Positions 21,831-54,003 of a stretch of 64,000 nt of DNA are shown in pieces (position 1 is the stretch's first letter; the number at the start of each line of letters is the position of its first letter). Where the stretch lies: assembly GCA_030704615.1 (NCBI GenBank), contig CM060732.1:54436001-54500000 (forward strand), read 5' to 3'. The notes under the pieces were generated by a model. The model searched no databases, was not told where the DNA came from, and was given only the letters and a program-made list of their open reading frames with translations. Both the position numbers and the translations under genes were made by a program. The DNA comes from Takakia lepidozioides (Eukaryota > Plantae > Bryophyta).

Positions 21831-23510
21831 TCAACACCGGAGATGTGCTTCACGCCAACAACTTCCAAGATAGAGGAATGTATTATCGCATTGGGGACAA
21901 AAGTAATGGGTACGCAGCCCGCACTGAATGCACACACGGCTGAAACAGGTTGTGCAAAGAGAAATGCCAATGGCAATGCGAGGTCGTCAACACTGTGGCA
22001 TGAATCGGGTGCACAGCCAATATGGCAGGAGCCATCAGACCGTCTGTCAATGCCAGCGGAAACTCAAGATGGGTCAGCCCACGCAACCCCATCCGGCGTA
22101 TGTGATACACATGCAAGAGATAAGAATTCACAATCGTGGTGTCCAATAGGAAAAAAAACACTCTATGCCACCATTTGTGAGCCTTCAGCTGCATGCTATA
22201 TGCACCTCGCAACTGGTCCTGGACATCTACACCACGCATGTAAGTTTGGTATTGAACGTGCATCGGAATAGAAGGCACCTGCACCCTGGCATTCCCCACA
22301 AACCTTTTGACCGTCACAAGTGATTCGGGCCAGATGCGGGCCAACACCATGAACACGCATTTCTTATCCCACCACAAACAACAACCTGTGCCGATACGCC
22401 ACCAAGTGCCCTTGCTTAGTCTTGGACTTGGACAAGCAAGTCAAAGAAGGGGGCAATCCTTTTCTATTCAGCTTGACAGTGCCAGTGGCCCATGTCCCAA
22501 ACAAAGCCATATCATACAGCAACTATGGTGATGTGAAGTAATTGTCAGTCACCACCACATGGCTGAGTCTATGCGATGGAGAGACTAGCCGAGTGACCAC
22601 ATCATATCCCTCACCTTTGCTAGACTTCTCCCTCATGCCCTCGGGGTCCCCGTTCTTCCCACAATACACATCGAAAATCATACACATAGCTATTGACTGC
22701 ATCTGCAAGGGCCCACACTTTTATGCCCCACTTGACTGGCTTCTTAGGCATAATATATTGTTGTATAACACAGTACTTCCCCTTGTACCTTATCATGATT
22801 TTGTCATCTGTCAATAATTTGTGCAGGTTCCAATGTCGTTTGCAAGCACTGGCAATTTTTGCACAAGCCCATCTGACTTTGCCAATTTTGTCAATCGCAA
22901 CACTGCTACGATCAGTCTCCAGCGTTGAGTTATCCATCAAATGCAAACAATGCAAAATTGCTTCACAACGATCTCTTGTCATGACCTTTCTAGTCACAGG
23001 GCATGCAAAGAATACTTCACTCTGCTGCCAATAGCAACGGTTGTTCGGCAGCCTCTTTATCCCCATGAACAACACACACCAACCCAGACTTCCAGCTCTG
23101 GCACAACCAATATTGGCCTCCACATTGGCCCACCTCGAGTTCCGCATGCCACTGTTTCCACAGCGTAACGATTCGTCTCCCGACAAATTCGCAGCAGGGT
23201 TGCGGTGGACCAGAACAACTTGAAAAAAAAAAAGCACAACAGGATGTCATGTTGCCTCAGAAGAGGCCCAGCTGGTGTAGGACCAGCGAACTTCTTTCTA
23301 TCACTATAGAACGTTGTTTCTCTGCATTCCCAATTCCCAGGAGCGAACAAAGTGGCAAACGACTCATTTGTCTCCTCCTCCACCTCCCCTGAGGCCCCAT
23401 CATTTTCCCAGTCCTCTTCCTCACATGAATCGCCCTCATATCCCTCCATACGAACCATTGGCACATCCCCATTTTCACAATCCAAGAATTCTAAACTACT
23501 AGCATCCAAA
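21831..23510 (-). pseudogene. piggyBac-family (PGBD-like) transposase, frameshifted
   Basis: IRYKGKY..QYIMPKKPVKWGIKVWALAD, VVVTDNYFTS, YMRGVDVQDQLR..KWWHRVFFFLLD..IVNSYLL, and C-terminal Cys-rich RVCIQCGLRTHYFCPQC..CWREAH in a shifted frame. Confidence 0.88.
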
Positions 23511-28294: not shown

Positions 28295-31200
28295 TTGGCG
28301 GTGCTAAAAATGAGAGTGAGTGGGAAGGACTCTCCGACAATCCTTTTATCCCAAGCTGTGCTCCACCAGTACATTTGTTTGTAAGTTCTGCAAGGTGGCC
28401 CCCTCCTGTATTGCACATTGCCCTGCTCGCATTGTCGTGCACCTCACTTCGGTAAGATCCCTTCAAGTCATAGTTACTCGCTTTGATACGCGCGCCTAAC
28501 TCCCAACCTGGCCGCCGGGCCAACTCGGAGCTTCGGCTGCTCACCGGGACATAACGGTCCCGCTTTACTCCCCCAACAGACCCTCCACCAATTTGGGCCT
28601 AGTGGAAATTCCCTTTGGTAGATGGTAGTCCGGAATAGCTCCCCACTTTTTGGTCGTTTTCCGACTCGCTCGCTTACTGACTAGTTTATGGTCACCAACG
28701 GGCTTGCACCGTTCTCGGGGTTACTACTCCCTATATATACTTCTGTGACTGTCCACGGGGGTTTCACAAACAACCATGCCATTTTATGGCGAACCACCAC
28801 GAAGACCCTCGATTCCCGGTGATGAGTTGCGGTGAGTTTTGGCCCACCCACCACGGCCCCATTGGACCGTGGCGAGTCCCAAGACTCCCCACGACTCCCA
28901 CCACAAGGTGTCCGCCCCATGGTGAGTCCTATGCCACCCCCACTAAGTCCCACTAAGCTACCATCACCCCTTGTGGAGCTACCCCCACCGCAACCCGGTG
29001 TGCGGGGCTCCATCTAGTGAGCGCCTCCGCCTCCTTGAGTGCCTTGGGCACTCAAGGGTGCTTCAGCCCCCCCGTACCTATTGCTGCCACCGCCCCCACC
29101 ACAGGGGCAGCCTGCGTCCCGACCCCCTGCCCTCAAGGCAAAGGGCCGCGACACGCATGTACTACGTTACTCACTGTTGCAAAACCATGACTCGAGCCTA
29201 CATTCATTTTGGGACTCACGACCATCATGTGTCTCACAGCAATTGCAGAGATAGTGTGGAGTTGGCGCGTGGGCTCGAGGAGTTTGCAAAGTCTCCTTCA
29301 ACCGAACCATCTGCCATAGCGCTGGCTGCCAGCAAAAGTTTCCTGGAGAGGCATATTCTGGGGCAAGGAAGCAAATCCAGCTCAAGACTTGAGGGGGCGT
29401 CTTTGGATGCAGTGATGGATCACTTCTCCGTGTTGAGCTCCCCCAATATTGGGAATCAGGTGAATGCATTGAGAGTGCGCGGTGGAAACACAGGGTCCAT
29501 CGACAGCATTATGGAGCTCAAACGAATAAGTCAATATGACTTTATCCAATCTAGCGTCTTCCCGGATCAGGGGTCTTCAAAGGTTTACTTGTTCAAGATG
29601 TCTACGGTGGGCGAGGGCAGTGGCGTCAGCCTGGCCAGACGTATGCAACCAGGGGGGGATCTGGAGAAAGCCTGGATGATGTTCGATCATTGCAAACGAG
29701 TGAAGGGCTAGACAACCATGTCTTGCCATGTTTACGACCCGAACTACCAAAGAATAATGACAATTGCCATCTGTGACATGCAGTCTGAAGATACAGAGTC
29801 CCAGATGATAATGTGGAATTGTTTGCTTTCAGTCATGGAGTCCAATGGACATACATGCATAAATTTCAACGGGTTTATGGCGGATAGTGCACATGCTAAC
29901 TTCAACGCTGTGCGCCAAGTTTTTGGATCTGGTGATCCAAAGGTACCCATGCCTAATAGGGAGCGCACATGTCTATTCCACTGGACTCAGTCCCTGCAGA
30001 AACATACGAAGAGGTGCATCGGAAGAGATCTGAAGGCGGAGCACATGAGGCTCTGCTTCTGCATGTACAAGAATGCGACTACAATGGAAGAGGCTGAGAC
30101 CAGGTACCAGACAGTGAGAGCATGGTGGTTCTCGTCAGGGGCTACTGATCATGACGGTGTCAAAGAATTGGAAGACTGGTTGGTCTTCTGGCACTTCAGA
30201 TACCGGCAATGGGGGCCTTTCATGACTACTGTAAGCTGTTTTTCACCTCTGAAATCCCTTGTATGTGCCCAGTTTCTTTCCTTGTTCCCAGAATGATCCG
30301 CGCTTGCATGAATGACGCTCTTTCATTTTCCTTTCACAGGACATGTCCCTTGAGGACATTGTGGACATGCCGTCCTACAACCTGGCAGAAAGCGTTCACG
30401 CGGTCTGGAAGCAGCAATCTGGCAAAGCAGGAAGAGATCTGTACATTGCTACAACAGATGATCTGGTACGAGCTCTAACCCAACAAACAAGATATCGTGA
30501 CTTCCTCAGGGGGCGATGTGGGGGCAAGGGACCAAATACAGCAGAGTTGATGCTAAGGGTTGCAAGAAGGTCCGGGGATCCAACGAAGATGGCAAAGGCA
30601 GTGAACAGGTGCACAATAGGCTTGCCTCTCCAATCAAGGGAGCCCCATCTGGAAGGAGAGGAAATGTTTGGGACTTGCAAACGCAAGCTAAATACACCTC
30701 CAGGATCAGATGGGGATTCACATCGCCATGACAGAGACAACTTCTCTGTACCCAAGATTTCTCCACTACAAAGTATGGCATCCAGTAGGAAAGAGGCTGC
30801 TGGTGCATCCTCTTCCACAAAGACTTGTCCTTTATTTGCAACCCCTTTAATTGCGGGTTTCCAGCAGGACCACAGGGGGGCAGTGCAGGAGTCACCTTGT
30901 GCTGACTCCGAATGGCACATCGAGCGAACTACTCCAGGGTTTAGAGTTGGCTGCGCTGCAGTGAGGGCCATTAGTTATGAAAAGTGTAAGTCCAGGATAG
31001 TCAGAGGCTCAGCGGGTACTCCAGCTCCGACGGTCACATGTTTGATTCGGCCATATATGTCGAAGGAGTCGAAGACGCACAAATTCTGGTTCTACCCGGA
31101 CGATATGGCTCGCTGTGTGAATGGTACCATCCGCGACTCCTGTATTGCTAAGCCTCCCCCACCCACCATTTGGCCAGTGCGGGTGGGAACCTCCCTAACA

Positions 31201-31365
31201 GCACTAGAGATTGGCAAGTTGGAGGACGCCGGCTTTCGTCTGCACCGATCTGTGGCGTCGACTCTTGGTGGCCTTGTTGCTATGGTGCCTCCGTTCATGC
31301 AAGAATCCCTAAGTAAGATTCATGATGACTCACCCAACCTTTTTTTTTCACCTCTTCTTCAATAA
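28295..31365 (+). pseudogene. Mutator-superfamily (MULE) DDE transposase, 5'-truncated, solo-LTR-interrupted, stop at 29709, intron ~30231-30339
   Basis: Cys/His N-domain (VCKFCKVAPSCIAHCPARMYY..HFGTHDH), MFDH (D1), FMADSA (D2), CLFH (CxxH), NLAESVH (E). Confidence 0.8.
28433..29153. mobile_element. Solo LTR (721 bp) inserted in the MULE transposase
   Basis: Ends TGTCG...CGACA; 5-bp TSD CGCAT (28428-28432, 29154-29158); removal restores CPAR-MYYV. Confidence 0.85.
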
Positions 31366-34010: not shown

Positions 34011-34224
34011 GTAACATAGCCACGGCCGTAGCATTCGATGGCGGTACCATTCGAGGTGACATTTAGCGTGGAGGTACTTTTAGGGAATCTCACCCTTGAC
34101 CCATCTAGCAAAATCTAGTAGTTTTTTTTTTGTATGTAGAATAAGGGAGGGATGTTTTTGGGACATCATACTAGTGCCCTATGACCTTTATGTGCTAAGC
34201 TTAGGTCTTTTCTTTTTTTGTTGT

Positions 34225-34932
34225 TGTCGTGCGCATACATATCGCTACACAACTACATCGCTGTCCAAAACCACACAACACATGTGCACACCACACACTA
34301 GTATACCACTAGTCTACCACTAGTCCAGCCACTAGTCCAACCACTAGGCTACAACTAGTCAGTCACTAGGCTGCCACTACGCTGCCCACTATGGCAATCA
34401 CTAGTCCACACAATGATAAAGAAGAAGAATACAAGCACGAGCTCATGTGAGCTCACAAAGCTGAAGCATAAACTCATGCATATATAACCTCATCACTCAA
34501 ATACAAGTCAAGCCAAGTGCACCCCACGCCATGGGGAATCCACACTACGGCGCCATAGCTAGGCGCGGTGAGGCTCAACTCGAGAAAGATGAGCCTCCTG
34601 CGCTTGCCGTGAAGATAACCACTCCAGGGCCTAAATCTGCCTTGACCCCTGGATTGACACTTGGACCAATCCCAAATGTCAATATGTAAAAGCTAGCTAT
34701 TTCCTAGCTAGTTTCACACTAGTGGTAAAATAACTTGACAGCTGTCGTGCGCATACATATCGCTACACAACTACATCGCTGTCCAAAACCACACAACACA
34801 TGTGCACACCACACACTAGTATACCACTAGTCTACCACTAGTCCAGCCACTAGTCCAACCACTAGGCTACAACTAGTCAGTCACTAGGCTGCCACTACGC
34901 TGCCCACTATGGCAATCACTAGTCCACACAAT
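34225..34932 (-). repeat. 3' terminal repeat block: A (34225-34413), B (34414-34740), GC, A (34743-34931)
   Basis: The two A copies look identical by eye; B matches 46137-46463 with one visible substitution; PPT AGGGGGGCGAT (minus strand) at 34931-34941. Confidence 0.92.
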
Positions 34933-35190
34933 CGCCCCCCTAGCTGGTGCTTAGGTCCCTCTAAGTCCAGGTAGCCACAAGATGTGATAGTGACCATAGC
35001 CTCACTAAGTCCTCCACCACTATCCCTACTACACTCAAACTCGATAGATCAAGAGGCCGGGTGCAAGAGTTGCCCCATCGTTAGTCGCCGTCTTGCAACC
35101 TGTGAACTTGAGCTTGGGATCTCATGTATTGACTCCTATGAGCTTGGCCTCCCATGTCTTGTTAGCTGCCTCCAGTCATGTCCACTGCCA

Positions 35191-38166
35191 CTATCCCAAG
35201 TAGTGTGGACACAACCAATCTCCGTCAGGAACCTTCTCAAGAGGTGGTGTCAAGCATCCCATATGCCAACCCCTTGAGCATCGATCACACACCAGCATGG
35301 TGGCTGCCCCTTTGGCAGACCCACAGAGCATGCACCTCAAACCTGCAGGTACCACTGCCAAGTTTGGGTCAACTCTGCCATCGACATTGGGAAGGTGACA
35401 TGACGCACAATTACGCACATGGTCCTTCCAAGTCATGTCATCCCGACCCTCCAAGATCAGGACCCCTGAGGGCAACACCTCTCGAACCCTCAGAATAACA
35501 CGCCCTGCAGTAACATCCAGAGTCGTAGGAGCAGTCTGCTGCAAATAAACATAGTCACCAGGGCTAAACCTCCGAACCCCAGGACGATATCCTCCACCAC
35601 GTATAGTGGCATACCTCAACGTATCACGGTGCTGTGCAATGGCAAGGTTCTCAAAAGCCATGGGCATGACTTTCTTGAACAACTCTGCACGCTGATCACA
35701 TGCACGTACGCACACGTCCGGATCGTCAAGGTTAAGGACTTGAGCAGTGTCCCTACGAATGGCTGCAGGCAAATCCGGCTCTCGGCCAAAGAGAAGGAAA
35801 TATGGTGAGAAGGAGGCAAGTGATGCTTGTTTGCTGAACCTGTAGCCCATGGCTAACCAAGGAACCTGAAGATCCCAATCTCCTAGGTGTCCCTTCTGCA
35901 AGCCATACTTGCGCAAACCCCTCTTCACCGTCTGAACAACTCTCTCTGCTAAGCCATCGGCCTCAGGATGATCCCGAGAAGTGGTGCGGTGGTCTATCAA
36001 GGCTTTATCACACAAAGCCTGAAATTCCCCCAAGAACTCTCTCCCTTGGTCCGTGAGTACCTCAGCTGGAGCACCAAATCGGCTAAGCACACGATCCAAG
36101 AATGCATACGCAGCCCCCTCACTAGCCTTGTCAGGCAATGGAACCAACTCAATCCACTTGGAGAAGTGCTCCACCATCACCAACACATATCTGTGGTGGC
36201 GCATAGTCAGTGGCAACGGTCCTGCGAAGTCAAGACTCCACCTGTAGCCCAATCCCATGATAGGTAAAGGATGCAACTGTGGTGTAGGGGCGTTGAATGA
36301 AGCACGCACCCTGTCACACACCATGCACCTAGCCACAAACTGTTGCACCTCTGTATGCATACCACGCCACCAATACTGCCCCTGCAGTAAACTGTGAGTG
36401 CGTCGCACTCCAAAATGCCCCAACTCCTCATGGGCATGCCGCACTAACCGTGCACGCTGTGTGGGGTGAGGCACAATCCTCACCCGACCACCCTCCCACA
36501 CTCGAAGTAGGTGTATCCCCTCCCACTTGAACCTCTTGGCTCGTTGCAGGATCCGATCCCTCTCCCTGGCAGTCACAATGGCTGCCGTGTCTCCCGTGCG
36601 GAGGTAGTCCAACACAGCCGAATCCTCATGTATATCTCTGGCACCACCTAGCTCATCACTAGCCTCAGGGTCCTCAGACACTCCGTCTACAGTCATCCCT
36701 GTTGTAGGTCCAATCTGACCTCCCGATGCCAAGATACACAAAAATGCAGATGCGTGCCATCCCGGCACCATCTCCTCGTCCGTCTCACCATGCCACCGAG
36801 CTCCAGTGTCATCCTGCTGGCTCATGCATGGATTGCGACTCAATCCATCCGCATCCCAATTGACCAAACCCGGTCGATGCACAACCTGAAAGTCATACTC
36901 CTGGAGTATAAGTGCCCACCGTGCAAGCTTCCCTGTAAGCTTGTCTGACTCCATCAACCACTTGAGTGGCTGGTGATCCGTGACAAGGGTGAAAAGATTG
37001 CCGTATAGATAGCACCTGAAGTGTGCCACGGCCCACACTGCAGCTAAGCACTCTCCCTCATATGAGCTGTACTTAGCCTCTGCAGCGTTGTTCGAGCGGC
37101 TAGCGTAAGCCACTACGAACTCTCTTCCCTCATCATCCACCTGTGTGAGCACCGCTCCAAGCCCCATCATGCTCCAATCCGTATGCAGCTGAAAGGGACG
37201 CCCCCTGATAGGTCGTCTCAAGATAGGCGCCGAGGTCAACCTCGCCTTGAGCTCTTGAAAAGCTCGTTCCTGCTCATCTTCCCACTGCCACTCCTGGTCC
37301 ACCTTGGTCAGCTTGGTTAGAGCCTTTGCAATGGTACTAAATCCCTTGACAAACCGTCTATAATAGTTTGCCAACCCCATGAACGCTCGAACTCGGCTCA
37401 CATCCGTGGGGCGTGGAATTTGTGCAATGGCCTCTACCTTAGTCTGCTGTACCCCCAATCCTCCAGGATATATCATGTGACCCAGATACTCAATCTGGTT
37501 GTGGAAAAACTTGCACTTCCCCGGATGCAACTTCAATCCGTGCGCTCTCAAACGCTCCAATACCACCTGAAGGTGTCTCTCATGCTCCTCCATCGTAACA
37601 CTAAAGATGATGATGTCATCTATGTAGCACCGAGCAAAGTCCACCCCTGCTAGAATCCTATCCATGACTCTCTGAAACTCTGCAGGAGCATTCTTAAGCC
37701 CAAATGGTAAGAACCGCCACTGATATAGGCAATCCTTGCCGTGCTCATTGATCCCCCAGAATGCCGTCTTCTGCTTGTCCGCCTCCTTGATTGGCAACTG
37801 GTGATATCCGGATCGTAAATCCAAAGTGCTAAAGGCCTTAGCATGCCCGATGGCATCAAAGATCTCCTCTGGTGTTGGCATGGCATACTTATCGGACTTG
37901 GTCTGACGATTTACAGGCCGGTAATCACCGCACATACGTCTCTCCGTCCAATTGCCATAGACATCCTTCTTGGCTGGCATCACTGTGGCTGAAGCATACT
38001 CTCCACCAGAGAGCTCCACCAAACCTGCCTCCCAGAGATCTTGAGTCCTCATCTGAATCAAAGACCTCTCCATGTCACTGTATCTATAGGGTCTCCGAAA
38101 GATTGGCGTGTCAGTGGCCAACTCAATACGGATCTCTTGACCCTTCAGTGCTCCCGAGTCCTTCAA
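35191..38166 (-). CDS. Pol: reverse transcriptase, RNase H, integrase (H2C2 + DDE), C-terminal PHD finger
   Basis: LDLRSGYHQL, LPFGLKNAP, YIDD, LHTDWS, HEELGH..CMVC, SLDFAG / LTDQG / LAERVV, CMLC..CDRC..WHMGC..WLCPH. Confidence 0.96.
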   Translation of the reverse strand: MKDSGALKGQEIRIELATDTPIFRRPYRYSDMERSLIQMRTQDLWEAGLVELSGGEYASATVMPAKKDVYGNWTERRMCGDYRPVNRQTKSDKYAMPTPEEIFDAIGHAKAFSTLDLRSGYHQLPIKEADKQKTAFWGINEHGKDCLYQWRFLPFGLKNAPAEFQRVMDRILAGVDFARCYIDDIIIFSVTMEEHERHLQVVLERLRAHGLKLHPGKCKFFHNQIEYLGHMIYPGGLGVQQTKVEAIAQIPRPTDVSRVRAFMGLANYYRRFVKGFSTIAKALTKLTKVDQEWQWEDEQERAFQELKARLTSAPILRRPIRGRPFQLHTDWSMMGLGAVLTQVDDEGREFVVAYASRSNNAAEAKYSSYEGECLAAVWAVAHFRCYLYGNLFTLVTDHQPLKWLMESDKLTGKLARWALILQEYDFQVVHRPGLVNWDADGLSRNPCMSQQDDTGARWHGETDEEMVPGWHASAFLCILASGGQIGPTTGMTVDGVSEDPEASDELGGARDIHEDSAVLDYLRTGDTAAIVTARERDRILQRAKRFKWEGIHLLRVWEGGRVRIVPHPTQRARLVRHAHEELGHFGVRRTHSLLQGQYWWRGMHTEVQQFVARCMVCDRVRASFNAPTPQLHPLPIMGLGYRWSLDFAGPLPLTMRHHRYVLVMVEHFSKWIELVPLPDKASEGAAYAFLDRVLSRFGAPAEVLTDQGREFLGEFQALCDKALIDHRTTSRDHPEADGLAERVVQTVKRGLRKYGLQKGHLGDWDLQVPWLAMGYRFSKQASLASFSPYFLLFGREPDLPAAIRRDTAQVLNLDDPDVCVRACDQRAELFKKVMPMAFENLAIAQHRDTLRYATIRGGGYRPGVRRFSPGDYVYLQQTAPTTLDVTAGRVILRVREVLPSGVLILEGRDDMTWKDHVRNCASCHLPNVDGRVDPNLAVVPAGLRCMLCGSAKGAATMLVCDRCSRGWHMGCLTPPLEKVPDGDWLCPHYLG

Positions 38167-38624
38167 ACTGAAGGCAAAGCAATTCCTGTAAGCCCTCAGG
38201 AACCGCCGTATACGTCGTCTCTCTCCTCCGGTGACAATGGGTCCAATGTCAGGCTCCCAATTGTCCTCCGTAACTACAACCTTAAGTCCAGTGGGCTTAG
38301 AGGTAGAGGACGCGTCCCGTGGTTGCTATGCTGCAACCTCTTGAGCAGTACTCCCTACTTGCTCAGTCAATGACAAGGCATCATCCTGCCCCATCATCTC
38401 ATCCTTGAGGACCTCCTCAACTCGAGAAGAATCCCCAACCTCATCCATCACAGCCGCCTTGGCTGCCAACTCCCTCTGAACCTCGAGCACCTCCCACGTG
38501 TGCCATGGATGCATGCACCCCGTGGTCCTCATATGCTCGCCCCCACTCACTGCCTGTACCGTCTCGGTAGGCAGAGAGACCATTGAGGGAAGTGTATTCC
38601 GCACTCTGCGTTGCTCAGCTAGAG

Positions 38625-39575
38625 CCAAGCTGATAATCCAGGTCAAGCAATTGAGATCCATTGCTTGCCCCAACACTTGACGACGTGATGCCTCAGAAAG
38701 AGACGACACCGCCGTGGTACCAGTGGTAAAACCCATTGCCCGCTCACGCTCGTCAGCATTAGGCTCCACTAACTGCTGCAACTGAGCATCCCACAGAAGG
38801 CCAGGTCCACTATCCCGGAAAGCATGCGATCCTGGGAAGCTGAGCAGTGTAGGTAATGCTGCTCGTGGTTGACCCACCTTGTTGACCACTGCCAAAGGCG
38901 AACGGTCATCGTGTCTCACACGTTGAGACTGCCTCCCTGTGTCCAGAATGTTATCCACTGTGAGATGTGCTGGCCGCTGCACCCCATCAAATGCACGCTT
39001 GAGCAGTGCGGTGGCATCATGTTAGTCCACCATAGCCGTGGACGATGAGCCCGTGACCCCACTGTAGCTGCATCCAGCAACACTGCTGACCCAAGCCACG
39101 ACCGGACTTGATGCACACTGGCCATCACCCTGGCCCGAGAATTGCCCATCAGTGGCACATTCTCCAAGATGTATGCTGGAGATACAGCTTGATGAAGCTG
39201 CAAGTGGCGCAAAACCCGCACCATCTCCCAAAACAGACCCGACCTCGAGTCTCGCAATCCATTGCCATGCCCGGCTGATGAATGCCCTTGGCAGGGCCAA
39301 CCTGCCACTACCAGATCAATGGAGCCAACCCGCTCCAAATCCTGCGCCCCCAGCAACGAAATGTCTGCTGGCAAGGCCTGCTGATATCCACGAATTGCAG
39401 ACACCGACAACAACTCAGGGTACCGCTGCACCAACTGAGCAACATGGCGAAGTGAAACGCGTCGTGCAGTCTCATCCCTCTCCACATACAGGTAACGCCG
39501 AACTCGTACACCTGCCTGTAACACAGCAGCCAATCCGGTGCTGATCCCGCCAAACAAGTCCAGAAGACAAATGCC
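38625..39575 (-). CDS. DNMT3-like C5-cytosine DNA methyltransferase domain within the polyprotein (1-nt frameshift ~39010)
   Basis: Motif I LDLFGGIST, IV AGWPCQ, VI ILENV, VIII AHRPRLWWTN, IX ERERAMGF, X LGQAMD. Confidence 0.9.
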
Positions 39576-40019
39576 TTCATCCGGAGACTGCCACACAATA
39601 GGTGTGGTGTCCAATGGAGACAATTGAGGTGGTCCTGGTGCAATCTCCACACTCTCCTCCTCTCCTGACGGTACAAAAGCCTCCACCCAGGCTTGTTGCA
39701 CCCGTCGATCAGCATCCCGCTGCAAATCCTTGCTCGTGCCCCACAATGGAGTCTGAGCAACCATGGTAGGCAACTCCGCCATACCATACATGTCATCCTG
39801 CTCTCCCGAAGGTGGTACATCCTCTGAATGAGCATTGCCCTCAAGCAACTCTCTAGGCCAACTCACTGCCGCTGTGAATGCTGCTAGTGTCGGCATCTTG
39901 CCTCGCTGGGCAACCGCAACTCCTCCTATGAACGTCACAGGGAGCTGCGCACGCCGGCCCTCCCCTGACTGCCATGCAGGCCTATAGGAAGCTGACTCCT
40001 CCCAAAAATCCAGGGTGAA

Positions 40020-40320
40020 GCCCATGGGGTACAACACTGCCCCACCAACCAGGACATCGTATGAGACTGCGTCTGTCACAATGGCCTTGGCTCGCATCAC
40101 TGAGCCATCTGTAGGGTGATCCGGCCGTAGTCTGATAGCCAACTCATGCCGTGTCATGCCCCGAGCCTGCTCCGATCCTCCGAGAGACGTCTGTATCTGG
40201 AAAGGACAAGGCTCCATATCCGCCTCCGTGAGGCCCAAGCCTGCAATAGCAGCTCTGCCCAGCATCAGTGGCTGAGCTCCCGAGTCCAACAAGACTCGCA
40301 GTGGCCGGTACCTCTTGCCT
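40020..40320 (-). CDS. Retropepsin aspartic protease domain
   Basis: VLLDSGAQ active-site motif and YDVLVGG. Confidence 0.8.
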
Positions 40321-40802
40321 GCCGGTCCACTCAAACAGAAAATGCCATCCTGGTTGTCTAACATGACAACTCCAGGTGTCACCATGGCGCGCTCAATGGC
40401 TGGCCTAGCTGGCAGCTCCATCAACCTGGCAGCTGCAGCTTGCCATGGCGCCGCCGTGGCAGTCTTGACCCTCAAATCCGAGGATCCCTCCGGCACTACA
40501 CCTCCCACTATCTCCGCAGAAGATGAAGTAACCTCCCCACTCTCACAAAGTGTAGCTGCCAGCCTGAACACCTCAGCTGGTCTTACCCCCGGCGTCGCAA
40601 TCATGGTAGCCGAGAACAATGGAGCCTGGCACACAGATGTGGCCGCTCCTAGCAGCACACTAGCTGCCGTAGCCTTGGCAACACTAGGTAGTGGTGCTAC
40701 TCGTGTAGCTCTCCCCAATGGCATAGTGACCTCCGCCTCGGTAACAGTCGGGCGAGAACTAGGTGCCATGGATGGCGTCGACACTGTCTCCGCCAATGTG
40801 AA

Positions 40803-42490
40803 TGACTGAGGAAGCCTAGCCTGACGGCTTGCCTCCCACGCTGTGGATCCAACTCCACCTCTGCACCTCGTGGCTCAGGAACTCGTGCTGCTCCTCGAGT
40901 CACGGCTGCAGCAGACTCCACCTGCACTAGTGGTAGTGCTGCTCCACACATGAATCCCATGCCTCCCATATCTCCTCCCTCAGGAGCAGGAGGTGGACCA
41001 TCCGGCCTTAGAGCCGGTACCACCTGAGCTGTAGCCATGGCAGCGAGCCTCTGCTCTAGCTGCTGAAGCCGGTTGGCCATGCCTTGGTCAACACCCTGAC
41101 CTCCGCGTCCTTGGCCACGTTGAGCTTGCCCTTGGCCTGCACCTCGTGGCTGGCCACCTCGTCCCCTCTGGGCTGCTCCACCTCGCCCCCGGCCACCATT
41201 GTTCCCTTGGAACTGGCCTGGGCGCAACTCAGGATGCAAACCATAACACTGAGCCTCTCCATGCCCGTGTTTGCCACAATGCCCACACTGTAACTGTGCA
41301 GGCTGTGCATGTGCCGGCCCTTTGCCTCCCTCTGGACAATCCGTCTTGACATGGGGTCCTCCACATGTCCAGCACACCACATCCGCCCGTTGTTGGCCAG
41401 CAAATGAAGGGAGAGACCCCTGCATCTGAGGTCCTCTCTGCCCTTCCCTGAGCTTCACCTGAGCCCCCTTGTTGCCTTGAGCACGTTGAGGTGGTGGTTG
41501 GCTAGGAGCACCACTACCCCGTGGTGTCTCCTTAGCAAATCCCACCATGACCACTCGTTCCTCCACCATGTTGAGCTCTATCCGCTCTGCCAGCAAAAAC
41601 ACATTTGCTAAGGGGTTGGGCCGCTTGTAGGAGAGTTGCATCCCGCACCCTTCTCCTCAGCTCCTTGTCCAATATCCCATACCAGAATTGGACTGCCTGA
41701 GCTTCCGTAACCCCTTGGGTTACATTTATCAAGCGCCTCATGCGAGTGAAAGCCTCCCTCAAGCTCTCGGTCGGCTTCCGTTGGAACTCTTGCAAGCTCC
41801 GCAACTTCTCTGTCCTCACCCCTTGGTAGTTCCCTCTCAACTCTTCGAAGAACTCCACGACAGGGTTGAAGGCAGGCACGGGTGCTAGTGCTGGTGCGGG
41901 TAGTGGCTTGGGTGGACGTCGTAGCTACTGTACCACCAGTCCCACTGCTGCTTGCTGAAGCTGCCGGTGCAGCGGCAGGTGTAGCCACTGCCCTCGTGGC
42001 TCTAGTGCCCCTAGTGATGGAGACATAGTCGGGTGACCAGTACATCCTCCACTCCTCGATCTCAACCTCATGCCCCCGCCTGAACTCATGGTAATCATCC
42101 ATAGGCGGCCCCTCAAGGTGCTGAAACAGCCCTTTCCATGCCATGAACGGCGTAAATAGTTGTGGATTGCGCATTTGCTGCAAATCACACCAACACTTGG
42201 ATAAAATCATCCACTCAATGGTGCCCACCGCCCAGAGTACCTTCGTGGCCCCTTGGTAGCTCCATACATCTCCTCCATTGTGTCCCACAACAATGGCAAA
42301 GAAACAACTTGCACCGCCGGTATGAGTCCTCCCGATTCACAATCCGAATCAGAACCTTCCGTAGAAGACACAGGAGGTGAAGGTGGCCTAAACCGCACAC
42401 CTCGTCTCGTGTACCCACTAGTATCGCTAGTGCTCGAACCGGCACTGTCCCCAGCAACTAGTGGCACCTCCGTGTTGACACTCAACCGGT
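40803..42490 (-). CDS. Gag with zinc knuckles (several 1-nt frameshifts)
   Basis: FQRKPTESLREAFTRM gag motif; CWTCGGPHVKTDC and CGHCGKHGHGEAQC. Confidence 0.8.
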
Positions 42491-43279
42491 CATGAACACA
42501 ACATAAAACGAACCGCATAATAACAACATGACCCAACAGAAAAATACTCTCTGGCCTTTGGGGTACTGAACATAACCTGTCCTTCTCTCATGGTTCTTAC
42601 CCAACTTGATTCTGGTGCCTCCACACAGCACAGGATAGGTGGCTGGCACCCAACCCGCACAACCCAGTCACACAAAACACATACGTGGTCAATCGGTAGT
42701 GGATCCACACAAGAAATCAGATCGACAGGCCACCAGCACAGACAACAAAACCACAAACACACTAGCTGCACCACACAGTTGCACTCACCAGCACACACAA
42801 CAATCCGTCACACCACAGCCACACCAACAACCACACACAAACCCACCCCTCTCACAAGGTAACCGGGTTAGAGAACTGTGCGGCTTATGGTTGAATAATA
42901 AGTCCTAACATAGCCTACAGTACCTGCATCCACCACAAAGCACTCCTATGGTTGGCTGTGGTCACGCCTCCAACCTCACCACAGGAGAAACAATGATGGT
43001 CTGGCTGGTCATCACCCGCCTCACCATCGACGCATGCTCTAGGACTGGCCGGTGTCATCCGACAATCACCTATAAAAACAAGCGCCCCCACACACAACTA
43101 GCATGGCGCACAGTAAAGCATGCAGGTATGGAGGGGATCCAACACAAGAAATCAGATCGACAAGCCCCCACACCCAAAAACAACTCCACGGGTCTTAGGC
43201 AGTCCACCAGTGCCTCCACGAGTCAGCACAGGCCGTCCACAGGCAACCGGGCCACCACAGACCACACAGGCCCACACAG

Positions 43280-44600
43280 CCACTGGTCAGGCCGTCACAG
43301 TCCAAGGCCACTGGGCAAAGCCTGTCGCCAGCCATCACAGCCTGTCACAGCCTCAAAGGCCTCAGGCACGGCCTGTCACAGCCCCTCACAGCCCGTCACA
43401 GCCTCAAAGGCCTCAGGCACGGCCTGTCACAGCCCCTCACAGCCCGTCACAGCCCCAAAGGCCATGGGCACGGCCTGTCACAGCCCCTCACAGCCGTCAC
43501 GCCACAAGCCTCAGGCACGGCTGTCACAGCCCCTCACAGCCCCTCACAGCCCCAAAGGCCCCAGGCCGGCCTGTCACCGCCCCTCACAGCCCGTCACAGC
43601 CCCAAAGGCCATGGGCACGGCCTGTCACAGCCCTCACAGCCCGTCACAGCCTCAAAGGCCTCAGGCACGGCCTGTCACAGCCCCTCACAGCCGTCACAGC
43701 CCCAAAGGCCATGGGCACAAGCCTGTCACAGCCCGTCACAGCCCATAGGCCTCAGGGCACAGCCTGTCACAGCCCCGCACAGCCGTCACAGCCCAAAGGC
43801 CACTGGGCACAGCCTGTCACAGCCTGACACAGCCCGTCCAGCCCCACAGGGCACAGGGCACAGCCTGTCACAGCCCATCACAGCCCATCACAGCCGGTCC
43901 AGCTTGCCACAACCTGTCACAGCCGTCACAGGCCGTCACAGCTCGCCCCACAGCCTGACACAGCCCGTCACAGCCCCACAGGCACAGGGCACAGCCTGTC
44001 ACAGCCCCTCACAGCCCGTCACAGCCCCAAAGGCCTCAGGCACGGCCTGTCACAGCCCGTCACAGCCCCAAAGGCCACTGGGCACAGCCTGTCACAGCCT
44101 GACACAGCCCGTCACAGCCCCACAGGGCACAGGGCACAGCCTGTCACAGCCATCAAAGCCCATCACAGCCTGTCACAGCTTGCCACAGCCTGTCACAGCC
44201 GACAGCCCCACAGGCCACTGGGCACAGCCTGTCACAGCCCGTCACAGCCCCAAAGGCCATGGGCACAGCCGTCACAGCCGCCACAGCCTGTCACAGCCCG
44301 TCACAGCCCCAAAGGCCTCAGGCACAGCCTGTCACAGCCCGTCACAGCCCACAAGGCCACTGGGCACAGCCTGTCACAGCCTAACACAGCCCGTCACAGC
44401 CCCCAGGGCACAGGGCACAGCCTGTCACAGCCCATCACAGCCCATCACAGCCCGTCACAGCCCCACAGGCCTCATGGCACAGCCTGTCACAGCCCCGCAC
44501 AGCCCGTCACAGCCCCAAAGGCCACTGGGCACAGCCTGTCACAGCCTGACACAGCCCATCACAGCCTGTCACAGCTTGCCACAGCCTGTCACAGCCCCAC
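43280..44600. repeat. ~1.3-kb minisatellite of (C/T)GTCACAGCC units (~11-bp period, ~44-bp higher order) in the retroelement 5' leader
   Basis: Directly visible tandem array. Confidence 0.95.
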
Positions 44601-46136
44601 ACATGGCCGCTCTGGCAGTTTAGCCATTTCTCCAAGGGGTTTAGCCACGCCAAGCTAGGGTTTGTGTCTCTTGGACTCTAGGCTTCTTTCCACCGAGCTA
44701 TGGTGGCTGTGAGGAAATCAGCAAGGTATCCTTGCTCTTTCGGCTCCCACACACCACCATAGTAGCCCTAAGCCATGAGGTGGTTGCCACAAACCAAGCC
44801 TTCTTTCTCACTTAGCCTCCCCAAACACGCCACTAAACTCAATGGCAAACAACCAAGCCCTGTTGGTTCCCAGCCCTTGTGAGCACTCATTCAAGCACTC
44901 CCCTCATTGGACATAGCATCTGTCTTAGAGCCTATTCCAACCCTCTACACCTGTTGCTTCAAGAGTTGCGCTCCCTTCAAGCTTGAAGTTGAAACCCCAA
45001 CTCACATAGGCCCTACAAGTGCTGTTCTTTCACTCCAAGTGGAAACCAGCCCTAGACCTTCCGTTCTAGCTCTCTAAGGCTTGAAAACAAGAGCCTCAAT
45101 GGGCTGAAGGCATGCTCCACACATGCCCCACTCTCACCATAAGAGAATCAGCTCCTTTGCTTCATTTCTTGCACCCACAAACCTGATAATACAAGCTTCA
45201 GCAGGCTGAAAACATGCTCTACATGCCCTACAGGGAACCAGCCCCTTCCTTCCTTTCTTGCACTCCCACACCTAAAAGTGCAAGCCTTCACCAGGCTGAT
45301 AGCATGCTCCACACATACATTGCCCTCACATAAGGGAAGTCAGCCCTTCCCTCTTCCTTGCTTGCCCTCCAAGCTTGAAGATGGAAGCTTCAATGAGCTG
45401 AATACATGCTCCACACATGCAACCTCTTCACACAAGAGATATCAGCCCCCTATCTTGGCTCCTTGGCTCCTTGATGCTCTCTAAGACAAGACTAAGCACT
45501 CCCAAGCCCTTGCCAAGCTCCTGAAACCCTAAGGCTTACATTTCCAGCCACAAGACACTTCTCTTGTGGTGCAAGAGCTCTTCTTCCAAGCTCTGAAACC
45601 CTAGGTGCACATTCCATGGCCTTGCCGCACCTCTTAGCTCCTGTTCCAGCCCTGCTTTTGCCATGACAAGAGCCCTCTCAATGCTGAAGCTCGAGATTGA
45701 AACCCAATCTCACCATACTCCACAAAGTGCACTGATTTGCCCCAAGCCAAATCAGCCCTTTCGCTTGGTCTTGCAATCCTTCACACAATGACAGCTCGCA
45801 TTCCCAAGTCCAGTTCTCAGCTTTGCCACCAAAGCCACTATAACCTGCTCTTGACTGGTCCTCTTCCCAATCGTGCTTGCTCATGCATGTACACAATCTG
45901 AAACCATCAAGGTGCTCTGGAATTACCTACAGTATGGTGCTTTCATCTCTGAAGCTGAAGATCGAATGCCAAGGTTTACCACCTCGTAACCCACATCGCC
46001 TCCGCTTCTAACAACCAAAGAGCTCCACGGTGCTCCTTGCATAACAACTTGGTTTCTCTCATTCTCAAGCAAAAACCACAAGTGCTACAACTAACTCGTA
46101 TCTAGCACTCATAGATACGAGCTCATCTTTCTCGAG

Positions 46137-46463
46137 TGATAAAGAAGAAGAATACAAGCACGAGCTCATGCGAGCTCACAAAGCTGAAGCATAAACTCAT
46201 GCATATATAACCTCATCACTCAAATACAAGTCAAGCCAAGTGCACCCCACGCCATGGGGAATCCACACTACGGCGCCATAGCTAGGCGCGGTGAGGCTCA
46301 ACTCGAGAAAGATGAGCCTCCTGCGCTTGCCGTGAAGATAACCACTCCAGGGCCTAAATCTGCCTTGACCCCTGGATTGACACTTGGACCAATCCCAAAT
46401 GTCAATATGTAAAAGCTAGCTATTTCCTAGCTAGTTTCACACTAGTGGTAAAATAACTTGACA
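46137..46463 (-). repeat. 5' terminal repeat (B only), followed on the sense strand by a PBS (46121-46137) complementary to the LTR
   Basis: Matches 34414-34740; 46121-46137 is the exact reverse complement of 46301-46317. Confidence 0.9.
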
Positions 46464-47303
46464 TTGTGTTGCGTGTGGCAGGTAAGTGGATGAGACTGCA
46501 TTCAATTCATATTGTCCGCCGAGCTCTCTTCCCATTTTATGGGGCGGCCCTACATGGGAACTCGGCGACCGGGCCCGCCGCCCCATGCATGAAAGTGAGA
46601 AGTGTACCCAGCCATTTTTGTCAGTTTTCTCCCTTAAAGGGTGGGCCAGGTACATGGAAGGCTGCAATAACACAGCAGATAAGAGATGCAATAAAGCATT
46701 ACGACCCATCATGTTGGCTGCTTCTCTTTGTTAATCCCACCCATAAGAAACAAGAGCCGGTATCAATAGAGAGCTTCCAATCACTCATACCTCATAACAT
46801 GCACTGAAGCATTTGTAGTGGCTGGAACTGATTGCAATTTGCAGCTCTGTTTCCATCAATCCTGCATTCTTTGAGATTCAAGGAATTACTGGAAGATCAA
46901 ATGGAACTTGACTTGAACTTGTGTTTAAAGCACAACTTCCATCCACAGGTGCAGAGCTGCAACCACCTTTTCCATCCATGTGCTGGAGCCTGAAAGAAGA
47001 TGAGGGCCAGGGTTCCATGGGCCCATCGGCCGTGATCTGTGCGGCCCCACAGAAGGCGCATTTGGGGCCCATTCAACAGAACTCAATTGATTCCAATGAG
47101 GGGGCTACAAAGAGAGCAGGATTATGCAGGTTGCAGTCATGGGTTTAGTGACAGCTTCTTTCACAATGTGTTGAGCAGGACAGTGGGGTGAAGCACGACT
47201 CACAAGTCGCAGTAGCATTTCTGTGAAAGTTTTCTGGTACGGGTTGTGAAAAAAGGAGCAGAAGTGTTTCTTCTGGGTTGCAAGAGAATTCGCACACCCC
47301 CAC

Positions 47304-48470
47304 ATGCTAAAGAGGTTCGCACCTGGGTTCATCACCGGAAATCACAAGCAGACACTCTTGAGTACGAAATTCTCAGTGCATACTCAGGTACCCTACCCTT
47401 TCTTTTTCCTTCTCCTCTCACCAAGGTGAATTGGATAGTAGTTGGGCTGTTTGCTGCTCTCAGAAAAGGAGCAGATGTTGTTACATGCCATGGCTGGAAA
47501 AGATCAACTTCCGAGAGGGATTTTGCGGTTGAATAGCAGTATCTAGTGCAGAGAACATTGCCCAGAGGGAACGATAAAAGCTGGTACTGACATAGAAACG
47601 GGTGGCCTGGAACTTGCACTCACGAATGAAAATAAGGAAACATAATTCTGATACTCTCAGAGGTCCACTAAGAGAGAACAAATGAAGAGTCATTCTCATC
47701 TGAGGAAGGGCACTCTGATAAAACTGTTTCGAATTCATGCAATGGTGTGTTTACAGTGCAATTCCGGCTCAATGGATTCATCCACTAATTCTGGAGGAGG
47801 AGGATTACCAGAGAGAGTGATTGAGAAAGGGGCATCAGAAAGACTGAGGGAAGTGACAAAGAACATGCCAATGACGCAAGCATGGGAGCAGGTATGGGTG
47901 GAAGGGGTCACGCCCTGGGATGCAAAGGGGGCTACACCTGTTGTCACCCAGCTGGTGCAAGAAGGCAAGCTTGCAGAGGGCCAGGCGTTGGTCCCTGGCT
48001 GTGGTTTAGGGTATGATGTTTTGGCTATGGCAAGTCCAACGAGGAGCGTTGTCGGTCTTGACATCTCTAAGACCAGTCTTGAGCGGGCCAGAAAGCTGCA
48101 TGCAGGAAACCCCAGCAGCCAATGGGTTGAGTTTGTTAACGCGGATTTCTTCACCTTCTCACCCCCTGAGCCTTTTGATGTCATCTTTGATTACACATTT
48201 TTCTGTGCATTGGACCCTTCATTGAGGTCCCAGTGGGCCCAGACAATGTCAAAGTTACTTGCATCAGATGGCGAACTACTTACACTTCTCTTTCCGATCT
48301 CTGATCATGAAGGAGGCCCCCCCTATGCTGTTTCTCTTCAAGCTTACCAGACTGTGCTGCATCCATTGGGTTTCACCGTCGTGAGTATGGACGAGGCTAT
48401 TCCTAGTCTTCCAGCACGGAAAGGAATGGAATCGCTCGCTCGTTGGAAAAGATCCAACGTAGAAGCTTGA
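47304..48470 (+). CDS. HOL: Thiol/halide methyltransferase (HOL/TPMT family); probable short first exon 47304-47387 plus 47757-48470
   Basis: WVEGVTPWD, ALVPGCGLGYDV, DFFTF..FDVIFDYTFFCAL, HEGGPPYAVS; phase-0 GT-AG join to an upstream ATG exon. Confidence 0.9.
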
Positions 48471-50753: not shown

Positions 50754-51521
50754 AAGCCCTGCTTCCCTGCAGCCCTAAAAAGTCTTTCCTCGAATGCAGT
50801 TAGCCCACCTTCCCTAAACACCCTGGGCCAACAATGTGCATCTGGTACAATTGCGCAAGCTACGTGGGTACTCTCTGTTTTCCTTTCAACCTCCACCAAA
50901 GTCGACAAGCATCGCAGGCCCCTAGACTGTTCTGTTGTGGGAGGAGTTGGTGACCCCGGCTTTCTACTGTCATCAAAGCCGTGTCAGAAAGCTTCCAGAC
51001 CCATGTCCACAAGGTCAACCCAAATTCCCATCCGATATGACGCACACACGATCGTCCACAAAAGAAGCGAAACCAACAGACCTCTTTCCGCGGAAGGCCC
51101 CCAAATGGCCACGTCTGGAAAAATATTCTCTTTCTTTAATCTGTTCCAAGGTCGAACGGAAGGAAAAGGGATCAAGCCCGAGGATTCCTCAAACAAATCC
51201 CCTTCTCTCGTCAATGTTAGATGGGCACCTTCCTTGTAGCAGCCAGATGCTGCCGGATGACGGATGCCCCAAACCCACATTCTCGTCTTATGGCAAGGCA
51301 TCTCAGAGAACTGTACAAGAAAGCGTGCACGGAACTTCACTATCCTCTTTAGCGAAGGGGGGGGGGGGAGAGATGGGTTCTCCTGTCTCTTCCTGGTTTC
51401 AATAGTATTGTAGTTGTCCAGTGGTAGTCACTACAACTAATTCGATTCCAGGTCCGCAGCAGAGCCAATTTCTGTCTCTTTCACGACCGAGATAAGAGCG
51501 ACCGATTCCAGGTGGGCAGAA

Positions 51522-54003
51522 ATGGCAAACAACTTGTGGCTGCGTGCAAAACTCAATTTGCAGTGTAAAAATGTTTGGGACGAGGTGAGTGGATCACTGG
51601 GCGATTTGGGTACGTTTGTGCCGATTGTGCTGGCCCTCACTCTGGTGAATGGCCTTGATTTTGGAACAACACTTCTGTTCACTGGTGCCTACAACATTAT
51701 CACAGGTGAGATTATCCTTCGAGATTTCAACCTATTGGTCTTTTTCGATAATGGATCTCTTTGAAATTGGGTGACAAGCATGCGTGTTTTAAACTGCTGG
51801 GCTCAGTTGTTCTCGAATTCATGGATTGGTAGGGTAAACTAAGCTGAACAATATTATGTGGGAAAGGAATCAGACAGCTTGACAGGCTGTATCCTTAGAA
51901 TTATAGCTCGGATACTTACATGGGCCAAATTTGTGTTTTCTGTCTGTCTACAGAAGCTCACTTTTACGAATGGCATGTCTTTGGTGTGGTAGAGCTATGA
52001 CAGTTGTTGAAGTTATTAAAAAACTAGAAAGTGTGCGTGGAAGAGAGATTTCTTAGATGAGAGCATCCTCAAGGTCGTAGATTGCAAAACAAGTCTTCAC
52101 ATCGATGTGGTTTCTTGTACTTTCCCCATATTTGGAACGTGTTCAAAACTGCCTGGCAATGTTGTGCTGACGGTCGACTCCCTAGAAGACTCGCCCCCAA
52201 AGAAGACTTTTACGAGCATCGAGGGAGAGTACCTACCTCATCTGTGAATAACCAGCAACTTTAGGAACTGATTTGTACGTTGGGGGCCAAGAAGCATGGT
52301 CGTCATGCACACGTACTCTTGACTTTGTCTCTGTATCTTTAATGCTGCACAGGCGTGCTATTCGGAGTGCCGATGCCAGTGCAACCAATGAAGTCAATTG
52401 CCGCTGTAGCTATCTCTGAGGGAGATCCACTCACAGTGCCTCAAATAATGGCAGCTGGCATTACAACAGCCCTGGTGTTATTGGTGCTGGGAGACACTGG
52501 ACTCATGAGTGTTGTGAACCGATTAGTTCCTCTTCCAGTTGTGAGGGGCATACAGTTGTCACAAGGCATCTCGTTTGGGTCCACAGCTGTGAAATACATT
52601 CTGAAAAACCAGAATTTGCCAAGGAAAGGCAACTGGGGATCGAGCTTGGATGGGCTTGGATGGGCTTCTCCTTGCTCTCTCGGCATTATGTTTCATTGTC
52701 CTTGCTATGGGCTCCGGTGGAGGCATGGCAGATCAGTGTGGAGCTGGAGGCTGTGCTCAGCAGGAAGGAGAGGATCTTTTGGAGGGTGAAAGAGAGAGAG
52801 ATGAGAGAGGAGACGGAGAAAGAGGGACAGGAGAGGAGGAAAGGCAGCAAAAGTTTTTTGCCATTCCAACCGCACTTATCGTATTTTTCCTTGGAGTGAT
52901 TCTTGCCATTGTTCGAGACCCCAGCATCCCAGGGAAGCTCCACATTGGGCCATCAACTCCCCATTTTGTGAGAATCTCCCGGGAGGATTGGAAGATTGGC
53001 TTTGTGAGGGCCGCCATTCCACAGATCCCTCTCTCCATCCTCAATTCTGTCATAGCTGTCTGCAAGCTTTCAAATGACTTATTTCCCACCAAGGAAGTGT
53101 CACCTTTCAGGGTCTCGGTGAGTGTACTTTACCGGCTTATTAGAGCATCATTTCAGTAGAATCTACTCTAACTCGCTGATAACACCCCGCCTCGGGTTTC
53201 TGGAACCACATTCGTAGGTATTTGCCGCACAGTCAAAGCCCTGCCCTTTCAGGATATGTCCCATCAAGGCCCAGGGGCCGTGGGCAAGTACATACAATGT
53301 CTTCGACAATTTTGGCCCTATCTGGCTTGAATGGTAAAGAATGGACCTTGGAATTAGAAATGAATCCAATCAAGATGCTAATATGTAAGAATCGACATCT
53401 GTAGCTTCTTGCTGCCTCACACATATATGTGAACCAGTACTTGTGAATGCCCGCATGCAGAAGATGCATTCTGAATTCACAAAGGATAACAGGATGTGCC
53501 GCTCCATGTTCTCTTGTGTGTAGGTGAGCGTGGGGATTATGAACCTGGTGGGCTGCTGGTGGGGTGCGATGCCCGTTTGCCATGGTGCAGGAGGCCTAGC
53601 TGGCCAGTACCGATTTGGAGCCAGAAATGGGGTTTCTGTGGTTTTTCTTGGGACTGCTAAAATAGTTCTTGGCCTTCTTTTGGGCAGCTCTCTTGTGCAA
53701 ATTTTGGTCCCTTACCCTATTGGCCTTCTAGGTGTGCTGCTGCTGTTTTCAGGCCTTGAATTAGCAATGGCCTGCAGAGACAAAAACTCCAGAAGAGACG
53801 CATTTGTGATGCTAGTTGTCACAGTCGTCTCATTGACAAATTCAAGTTCTGCACTTGGATTTGGGTCTGGAATTGTTCTTGCTGTTCTGCTAGAGCTCCG
53901 AGAGAAAGAATTCTGGGTAAGGCTCTGGTCTCTTTTATCTCGCCGGGGGTCAGAAGAAAGTCTTCCCCCATCTGGCTATGACCAGCTATCTCACAATCCA
54001 TAG
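51522..54003 (+). CDS. MOT1: Molybdate transporter (MOT1 family); exons ~51522-51706, 52353-53117, 53524-54003; apparent frameshift at ~52615-52625
   Basis: EVSGSLGDLGTFVPI, FGVPMPVQPMKSIAAVA, PQIPLSILNSVIAV, GAMPVCHGAGGLAGQYRFGAR. Confidence 0.92.

Follow-up and report, generated by a model that had tools for sequence, protein, structure and literature searches.

A conserved DNMT3-like methyltransferase domain in a land-plant family of Gypsy-type retrotransposons with split repeats

Why should a transposon carry the kind of enzyme with which its host silences transposons, and how would such an element be expressed, copied and inserted? These questions are raised by a locus in Takakia lepidozioides, where a cytosine-C5 methyltransferase (DNMT) domain lies inside a retrotransposon. 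We analysed the 64,000-nucleotide stretch that holds it (contig CM060732.1 of assembly GCA_030704615.1, positions 54,436,001 to 54,500,000; hereafter the window, within which all positions are numbered).

The element spans 12,239 bp on the minus strand (34225-46463), has TG...CA termini and is bracketed by an identical 4-bp target-site duplication (46464-46467 on its 5' side, 34221-34224 on its 3' side). Along it run, in order, repeat A1, a primer-binding-like site (PBS), an untranslated region, gag, protease (PR), DNMT, a stop codon, reverse transcriptase (RT), RNase H (RH), integrase (IN), a PHD finger, a polypurine tract (PPT), repeat B1, the dinucleotide GC, and repeats A2 and B2. The long 5' non-coding region contains a tandem array with periods of 10 and 51 nt (43319-44599) and, at 45094-45448, three to four degenerate copies of a unit of about 90-100 nt. 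Gag (40697-42280) encodes two zinc knuckles and has several 1-2 nt frameshifts in this copy; its Retrotrans_gag Pfam match (E 5e-4) is under the cut-off, and it was also found by tblastn with Marchantia gag. The aspartic protease (39975-40424, LLDSGAQ at 40292-40272) has a weak Pfam match in the window copy (E 0.03); that of the Closterium homolog P0377 clears the cut-off. An open frame of 1044 codons (35191-38325) encodes RT (YIDD), RNase H, an H2C2 finger, a DDE integrase core (rve, E 2e-13) and a C-terminal PHD finger (35334-35203; E 7e-10 in the same Pfam scan). The element thus has the Gypsy order PR-RT-RH-IN with a DDE integrase. In Pfam scans, no tyrosine recombinase was matched in the element frames scanned, and no chromodomain was matched after the integrase, where the PHD finger stands instead. 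CpG depletion in the element equals that of its flanks (0.47 versus 0.49-0.54) and is uninformative.

The window holds other, mostly broken, features. At 21883-23246 (minus strand) lies a broken piggyBac-like DNA transposase (DDE_Tnp_1_7, E 1e-21). Three consecutive broken frames at 28947-31365 (plus strand), without a significant Pfam match, resemble a Mutator-like transposase. A decayed gene-like segment occurs twice, at 56739-57686 and 62449-63232, the two being 81-92% alike and about 5.7 kb apart; we take it to be F-box-like, with no Pfam match in the one frame scanned.

On the evidence of motifs, profiles and a predicted structure, the methyltransferase domain is real and DNMT3-like. LDLFGG (39563-39546), GWPCQG (motif IV, 39302-39285), ENV (motif VI, 39164-39156) and RAHRPRLWWTN (39053-39021) mark the part that carries motifs I-VIII (39021-39596), and motifs I, IV, VI and VIII lie together with the protease motif in a single open frame of 652 codons. 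The target-recognition region and motifs IX-X (38600-39021; ERERAMGF 38751-38728, GQAMD 38670-38656) follow in a different frame, past a break near 39010. The full C5-methyltransferase motif set that the earlier note placed in the protease frame is therefore in that frame only as far as motif VIII. Comparison with the Pfam DNA_methylase profile, which that note had proposed, came out clearly positive (E 7e-13, 49 bits against a cut-off of 22). Searched against the PDB, a profile of 12 close homologs ranked DNMT3A top, with DNMT3A/B/C at E 9e-13 to 6e-8 (DNMT3A, 9e-13) and the best non-DNMT3 methyltransferase at E 5e-6. An AlphaFold model of a naturally stop-free relative, built from a 66-sequence alignment, reached a pLDDT of 95.8 and matched DNMT3A among known structures at E 4e-20; it aligned with DNMT3B at Z 28.9 (rmsd 2.8, 278 aligned), DNMT3A at Z 27.7 (rmsd 2.5, 265 aligned) and M.HhaI at Z 22.9, and its nearest folds are DNMT3A/B and the CpG enzyme M.MpeI, ahead of DNMT2. 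The modelled region contains no chromatin-binding domain of its own. The catalytic Cys is retained in 65 of the 66 aligned homologs and the Glu of ENV in all 66; the motif IV Pro is the commonest residue at its position, yet is present in only 37 of these distant sequences. The domain is intronless and unrearranged, with motifs in the linear order I-IV-VI-VIII-IX-X, whereas plant DRM enzymes are described in PMC6453930 as having circularly permuted motifs.

The DNMT domain is whole in relatives and split by a frameshift in the window copy. Contigs from all four runs (three samples) show a one-base length difference from the window near 39010, and other copies differ in length from the window gag near 40834, 41612, 41898, 42212 and 42230. 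Thus, the breaks are private to the window copy or to its assembly. Eight of 13 indel sites adjoin runs of at least three identical bases, against a background of 26%. Assembly error is a plausible cause, as the element's repeats differ at just 1 base in 517 and a nearby host gene also carries a frameshift; our basis here is contigs, with which mutation and assembly error are both compatible. The host gene in question, a molybdate transporter (MFS_MOT1) at 51441-54003 (plus strand), shifts frame near 52720-52740 and is either a pseudogene or misassembled.

The nearest named relatives of the DNMT are in Marchantia polymorpha (up to 77% identity), Calypogeia fissa (74%) and Sphagnum (72%), followed by Closterium and Scenedesmus. 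In a metagenome scan 100 of 217 candidates held up, and the 80 loci kept belong mostly to one family resembling Sphagnum proteins (hereafter the moss family). Viral contigs yielded nothing close (none of 3 candidates, then 1 of 75, at 36% identity). Window and moss-family DNMTs are 63-74% identical, with dN about 0.2 and synonymous sites at or near saturation. Omega between them is 0.07-0.11 where computable, and 0.17-0.23 between locus L004 and the moss family; in these pairs the protease has diverged further than the DNMT. Pairs inside the old moss family give omega of 0.4-1.6, as post-insertion decay would. Additionally, 10 of 15 segregating DNMT changes in the window's own family are synonymous, against 25% expected (p 0.0009; 0.008 if 33% is expected), counted over 37 rows among the matches listed (40 of 92). 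By these sequence comparisons the DNMT domain is under purifying selection. Recent horizontal transfer, hinted at by 70-81% protein identity between liverworts and mosses, was dropped because synonymous sites are at or near saturation (pS about 0.7-0.8); ancient transfer is possible.

Next to the insertion lies a host thiol/halide methyltransferase gene (47688-48470, plus strand), which we used to place the host. It branches deep within a 16-row group that contains mosses, a protein of the lycophyte Diphasiastrum and further records (support 99/95), with liverworts and algae apart; thus the host is a non-seed land plant, probably moss-like. The earlier note had named three findings that would undo its claim of a land-plant Gypsy-type element with a DNMT3-like domain: algal contamination, absence of the domain from other family members, and neutral evolution. 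None of them was found, since the neighbouring gene groups as described, the domain is conserved family-wide and selection on it is purifying, and the claim stands. An artefact in a wider sense (algal contamination, but also a chimeric assembly or a host gene captured just once) could draw on the many small indels in the window, one of them in the molybdate-transporter gene, which suggest that the assembly may be error-prone. The same layout nevertheless recurs in Marchantia, Calypogeia, Sphagnum and many of the 80 metagenome loci; contigs from several runs cover DNMT and RT alike, although summed contig depth is not a copy number; and the host-gene tree and the clean 4-bp duplication point the same way. 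Having given such an artefact only a negligible chance, we count it as refuted, save for the single-base breaks, which are possibly assembly errors.

Homologs show two layouts, PR-DNMT-RT and RT-RH-DNMT-IN-PHD. These split on a single branch of an RT tree (11 versus 34 rows, SH-aLRT 98), and a DNMT tree requires two layout changes (45 versus 53 rows), the latter tree having been made by a quick method, with long-branch warnings and with proteins lacking either domain half omitted. Both trees include Closterium but not Klebsormidium. The second layout belongs to a larger Gypsy group (P0014, P0016, P0018 and about 50 more, including a Scenedesmus protein) with the DNMT between RNase H and integrase and often a C-terminal PHD finger. 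The DNMT occupies two positions in two RT clades, and chlorophytes are unmentioned in the parts of PMC5890265 available to us. Three further proteins (P0017, P0410 and P0411) join RT and this DNMT type to a Dam adenine methyltransferase, a DIRS-like combination, and branch first in the DNMT tree, subject to its long-branch warning; they possibly link the DNMT to split repeats.

For the charophyte alga Klebsormidium nitens, de Mendoza et al. (2018, PMC5890265) described KnitGypsy-Dnmt3, a type termed streptophyte Gypsy-DNMT3 in 10.64898/2026.05.21.726589, which combines a Gypsy domain set with repeats of DIRS-like structure. Thus, this kind of element was already known; the earlier note had itself named dinoflagellates and charophyte algae as sources of DNMT-carrying retrotransposons, which it did not count as a standard feature of embryophyte Gypsy elements. 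As far as the available sections of PMC5890265 go, the likeness extends to the Gypsy domain set, an unrearranged Dnmt3-like domain with its key residues, purifying selection and the DIRS-like repeats. The window family differs in living in land plants at high copy, and the DNMT of KnitGypsy-Dnmt3 lies in the RT/RNase H open reading frame (PMC5890265), whereas here a conserved stop separates the two. Because the DNMT is not in the RT frame, we file the element as a KnitGypsy-Dnmt3 variant and not as a proven member. In the same sections, a PHD finger, self-priming, target duplications and an integration route go unmentioned for KnitGypsy-Dnmt3; of the non-seed land plants that we looked for in the survey of PMC5890265, only Selaginella and Physcomitrella were present. 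Our sequence searches retrieved no named K. nitens element among the homologs. We found no description of the family in bryophytes, including by term searches of PMC6317226, PMC6453930, PMC10952607, PMC11982613 and PMC12344493, and likewise none of the stop after the DNMT, the predicted self-priming or the junction evidence; the 'streptophyte' papers, supplements, subscription papers or Repbase may include land-plant copies.

The earlier placement of the DNMT between protease and RT holds for domain order, but the DNMT ends the Gag-PR frame, and an in-frame TAG (38328-38326) precedes RT. It is followed by CAA CCA (the whole at 38320-38328), matching UAG-CAR-YYA, the type I or tobamovirus-type readthrough signal (PMC3542737). 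Stop-CAA-CCN recurs in 42 of 46 distinct aligned junctions, most of which are copies of the one moss family; one other reads TAG-TAG-CCA and three are unalignable. The strict CARYYA hexamer occurs in only 3 of the 46, most having CAACCC and then ATG. This context has been kept although the families share just 56-65% nucleotide identity, and RT is in frame in undisturbed copies. Single Gag-PR-DNMT proteins of 1250-1330 aa terminate at the corresponding place, 70-113 residues past motif X, and in P0377 of Closterium, as in two other relatives (P0376 and P0181), the DNMT runs on into RT without a stop. The conserved stop between DNMT and RT thus assigns the DNMT to a Gag-PR-DNMT frame, and its sequence context makes it likely that RT-integrase-PHD is produced by readthrough.

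The ends of the element are unusual. A1 (46137-46463; 327 nt, beginning TGTCA) stands alone at the 5' end; the 3' end consists of B1 (34743-34931, terminating in GACA, with the PPT immediately 5' of it at 34932-34945 and conserved in the moss family), GC, A2 (34414-34740) and B2 (34225-34413), so that A1-body-B1-GC-A2-B2 has no two identical terminal LTRs. The B1|A2 junction is a 10-nt palindrome centred on CA-GC-TG (34737-34746), which we infer to be the integrase cut site of a circular copy. B2 abuts A2 with no spacer, joining the PBS-defined end to the PPT-defined end of the cDNA. A1 and A2 differ at 1 position in 327 nt and B1 and B2 at none in 190. The near-identity read earlier as that of terminal repeats is therefore genuine, but it belongs to split direct repeats and not to a terminal LTR pair; likewise, the recent activity read from it fits this insertion, which the repeats suggest is young, and not the related moss copies, which are old, their A and B pairs having 91-94% identity.

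The arrangement recurs in the moss family, with repeats whose sequences mostly show no relation to those of the window. All 22 distinct 5' ends in that family have A without a preceding B, and the 3' ends are B-A-B in seven distinct insertions and a single B in nine loci (L032, L033, L034, L036, L040, L043, L051, L064 and L073), several of the latter with a 4-bp duplication. Single-B ends could reflect B-B recombination, assembly collapse or a cut one-LTR circle. L034 and the B-A-B locus L061 apparently have a common 3' flank, and L053 is a nested cluster of at least three family copies in both orientations. Target duplications in 10 related insertions with both ends are exact 4-bp in seven, 4-bp with one mismatch in two and absent in one; none of the 10 has a 5-bp duplication. 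All nine of nine loci have a 2-nt B1|A2 spacer (GC in five). A2|B2 is an exact end-to-end join in seven of nine distinct insertions, one exception having a primer-binding-site remnant and the other an insert ending in the PPT tail, and in each of two repeat families that are unrelated to one another this junction coincides with the two ends set by the primers. We rejected a pair of nested ordinary LTR elements as an explanation, as one and the same 4-bp duplication encloses everything from A1 to B2 and other insertions repeat the layout.

The site after A1 (46120-46137) is a primer-binding-like site of a non-tRNA type; it complements positions 147-164 of A, pairing with an A1 segment (46301-46317) that is the predicted RNA 5' end. 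In the window this duplex scores -30.8 kcal/mol, equalled by none of 500 shuffles. Duplexes of 17-18 bp, different in sequence, are predicted in both families (0 of 500 shuffles each), and the full-length duplex is kept in only 7 of 26 moss-family rows. Such pairing suggests Tf1-like self-priming. Tf1/sushi elements and Tcn1 chromoviruses likewise have predicted self-priming in place of a tRNA primer, a chromatin reader after the integrase and, in some, an in-frame stop after gag, as described in PMC6317226 and 10.1101/2022.12.06.519325; ours differs in having a PHD finger and not a chromodomain, a stop after PR-DNMT, split repeats and a DNMT. With canonical Ty3/Gypsy elements it shares TG...CA termini and a duplication within their 4-6 bp, but not two identical terminal LTRs. 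Its split direct repeats are those of Ngaro/PAT elements of the DIRS order (PMC8547959), and SymbioDIRS-Dnmt3 carries an active Dnmt3 domain (PMC5890265); unlike both, the window element has a DDE integrase, an H2C2 finger, TG...CA termini, a PPT and 4-bp duplications. Troyka, reported with CG...CG termini and a 3-bp duplication (PMC12440569), was rejected as a match.

We propose that the element combines a Gag-PR-DNMT frame, readthrough into Pol, methylation of its own cDNA and a two-LTR circle cut at the internal CA-GC-TG palindrome, and assign this model as a whole a probability of about 0.6. Very probably, the DNMT would be made at the level of Gag, released by the protease and packaged, with Pol a minor readthrough product; as the stop is sited after the DNMT, the enzyme would be wanted at capsid-like amounts. 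The RNA would, with good likelihood, start within A1, fold back onto the site after A1 and prime itself. RT would then produce ordinary linear cDNA, the true LTR being B-GC-A at both ends. We lean towards the view that the DNMT methylates cytosines of this new element DNA before insertion, and methylation of its own cDNA is a reasonable inference. On balance, the primer-defined ends of the cDNA would be joined, and integrase would cut CA^GC^TG beside the primer site with a 2-nt stagger, generating both processed ends and the inserted form A...B-GC-A-B. There is perhaps an even chance that the PHD finger would steer the integrase by way of histone H3 tails. HIV-1 integrase cleaves the palindrome at its own 2-LTR junction in vitro (PMC1905944), a reaction that likewise involves a DDE integrase and a CA...TG palindrome of two att ends; retroviruses use it as a side route, at a junction of joined ends, whereas the palindrome of our element is templated within the LTR and cutting it would be the normal route.

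The order of these steps can be read otherwise at two points. The stop might be a true terminator, with Pol expressed by ribosomes that restart at an ATG further downstream, from a spliced RNA or from a transcript of its own. Most moss-family copies do have an ATG 6 nt past the stop, in a CAACCC context that departs from the strict CARYYA; the codon at that position is CGG in the window and GTG in L004, yet both keep TAG-CAA-CCA and the RT frame, and in-frame gag/pol stops are a known readthrough strategy (10.1101/2022.12.06.519325). We consider true termination improbable. A more serious challenge does away with the end-joined two-LTR circle: templated strand transfers of the Ngaro-like kind, or else cuts inside a linear copy, would produce the split repeats; in the Ngaro-like version, the A|B junction is inherited from an RNA running through B2. 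Ngaro elements are built as A1-[ORFs]-B1A2B2 (PMC8547959), and templated copying predicts the exact A2|B2 joins seen in most insertions. Moreover, a closed circle would hold two identical CA-GC-TG sites, of which only the one adjacent to the primer site is seen to be cut; the circle model has no explanation for this one-sidedness, which counts against it, as do the nine loci ending in a single B. However, the extra sequence in two of the nine junctions matches the primer-binding site or ends in the PPT tail, and in unrelated repeat families the junction lies precisely where the two primers set the cDNA ends. An integrated form with B-GC-A at both ends was never seen. We regard templated transfer or linear cutting as possible but doubtful: A2|B2 joins two primer-defined cDNA ends and two of nine junctions hold primer-site remnants, which points to integration from a two-LTR circle.

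The use of the enzyme can also be construed in other ways. The DNMT may act mainly on chromatin during or after insertion (the site, a promoter or host DNA), guided together with the integrase PHD finger. That Pol terminates in a PHD finger fits such a role, and an influence on chromatin at the insertion site is among the possibilities named by de Mendoza et al. (PMC5890265). Yet the DNMT is encoded ahead of the stop, together with Gag, and would be cleaved from integrase-PHD, and would thus not be tethered to a chromatin reader, nor does the modelled region supply one; we think this role unlikely. Less likely still is that the domain is kept for a function other than 5mC, for example to methylate RNA or to bind nucleic acid within the particle. 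Yeast DNA gained no methylation from the K. nitens domain, a result that the authors of that study deem inconclusive; human DNMT3B also failed in the same assay (PMC5890265). The catalytic motifs of our family are all conserved, and the fold stands nearest to DNMT3A/B and M.MpeI, above DNMT2. Our preferred reading therefore remains methylation of new element DNA. A bolder version, which we hold to be improbable, is that a green-plant Gypsy lineage uses the two-LTR circle as its normal substrate, with a templated CA-GC-TG cut by a DDE integrase, and that packaged DNMT3 methylates the circle, maybe shielding one of the two sites in a switch resembling restriction-modification.

These findings extend DNMT3-carrying retrotransposons from one alga to land plants, including the tractable model Marchantia, in which it can be tested why a transposon carries the silencing enzyme of its host. 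In annotations such elements appear as hypothetical genes or host methyltransferases, and they would escape tools that rely on paired LTRs. If the circle route is true, the family would provide a natural DDE integrase that routinely uses circular DNA, which bears on the view of two-LTR circles as dead ends.
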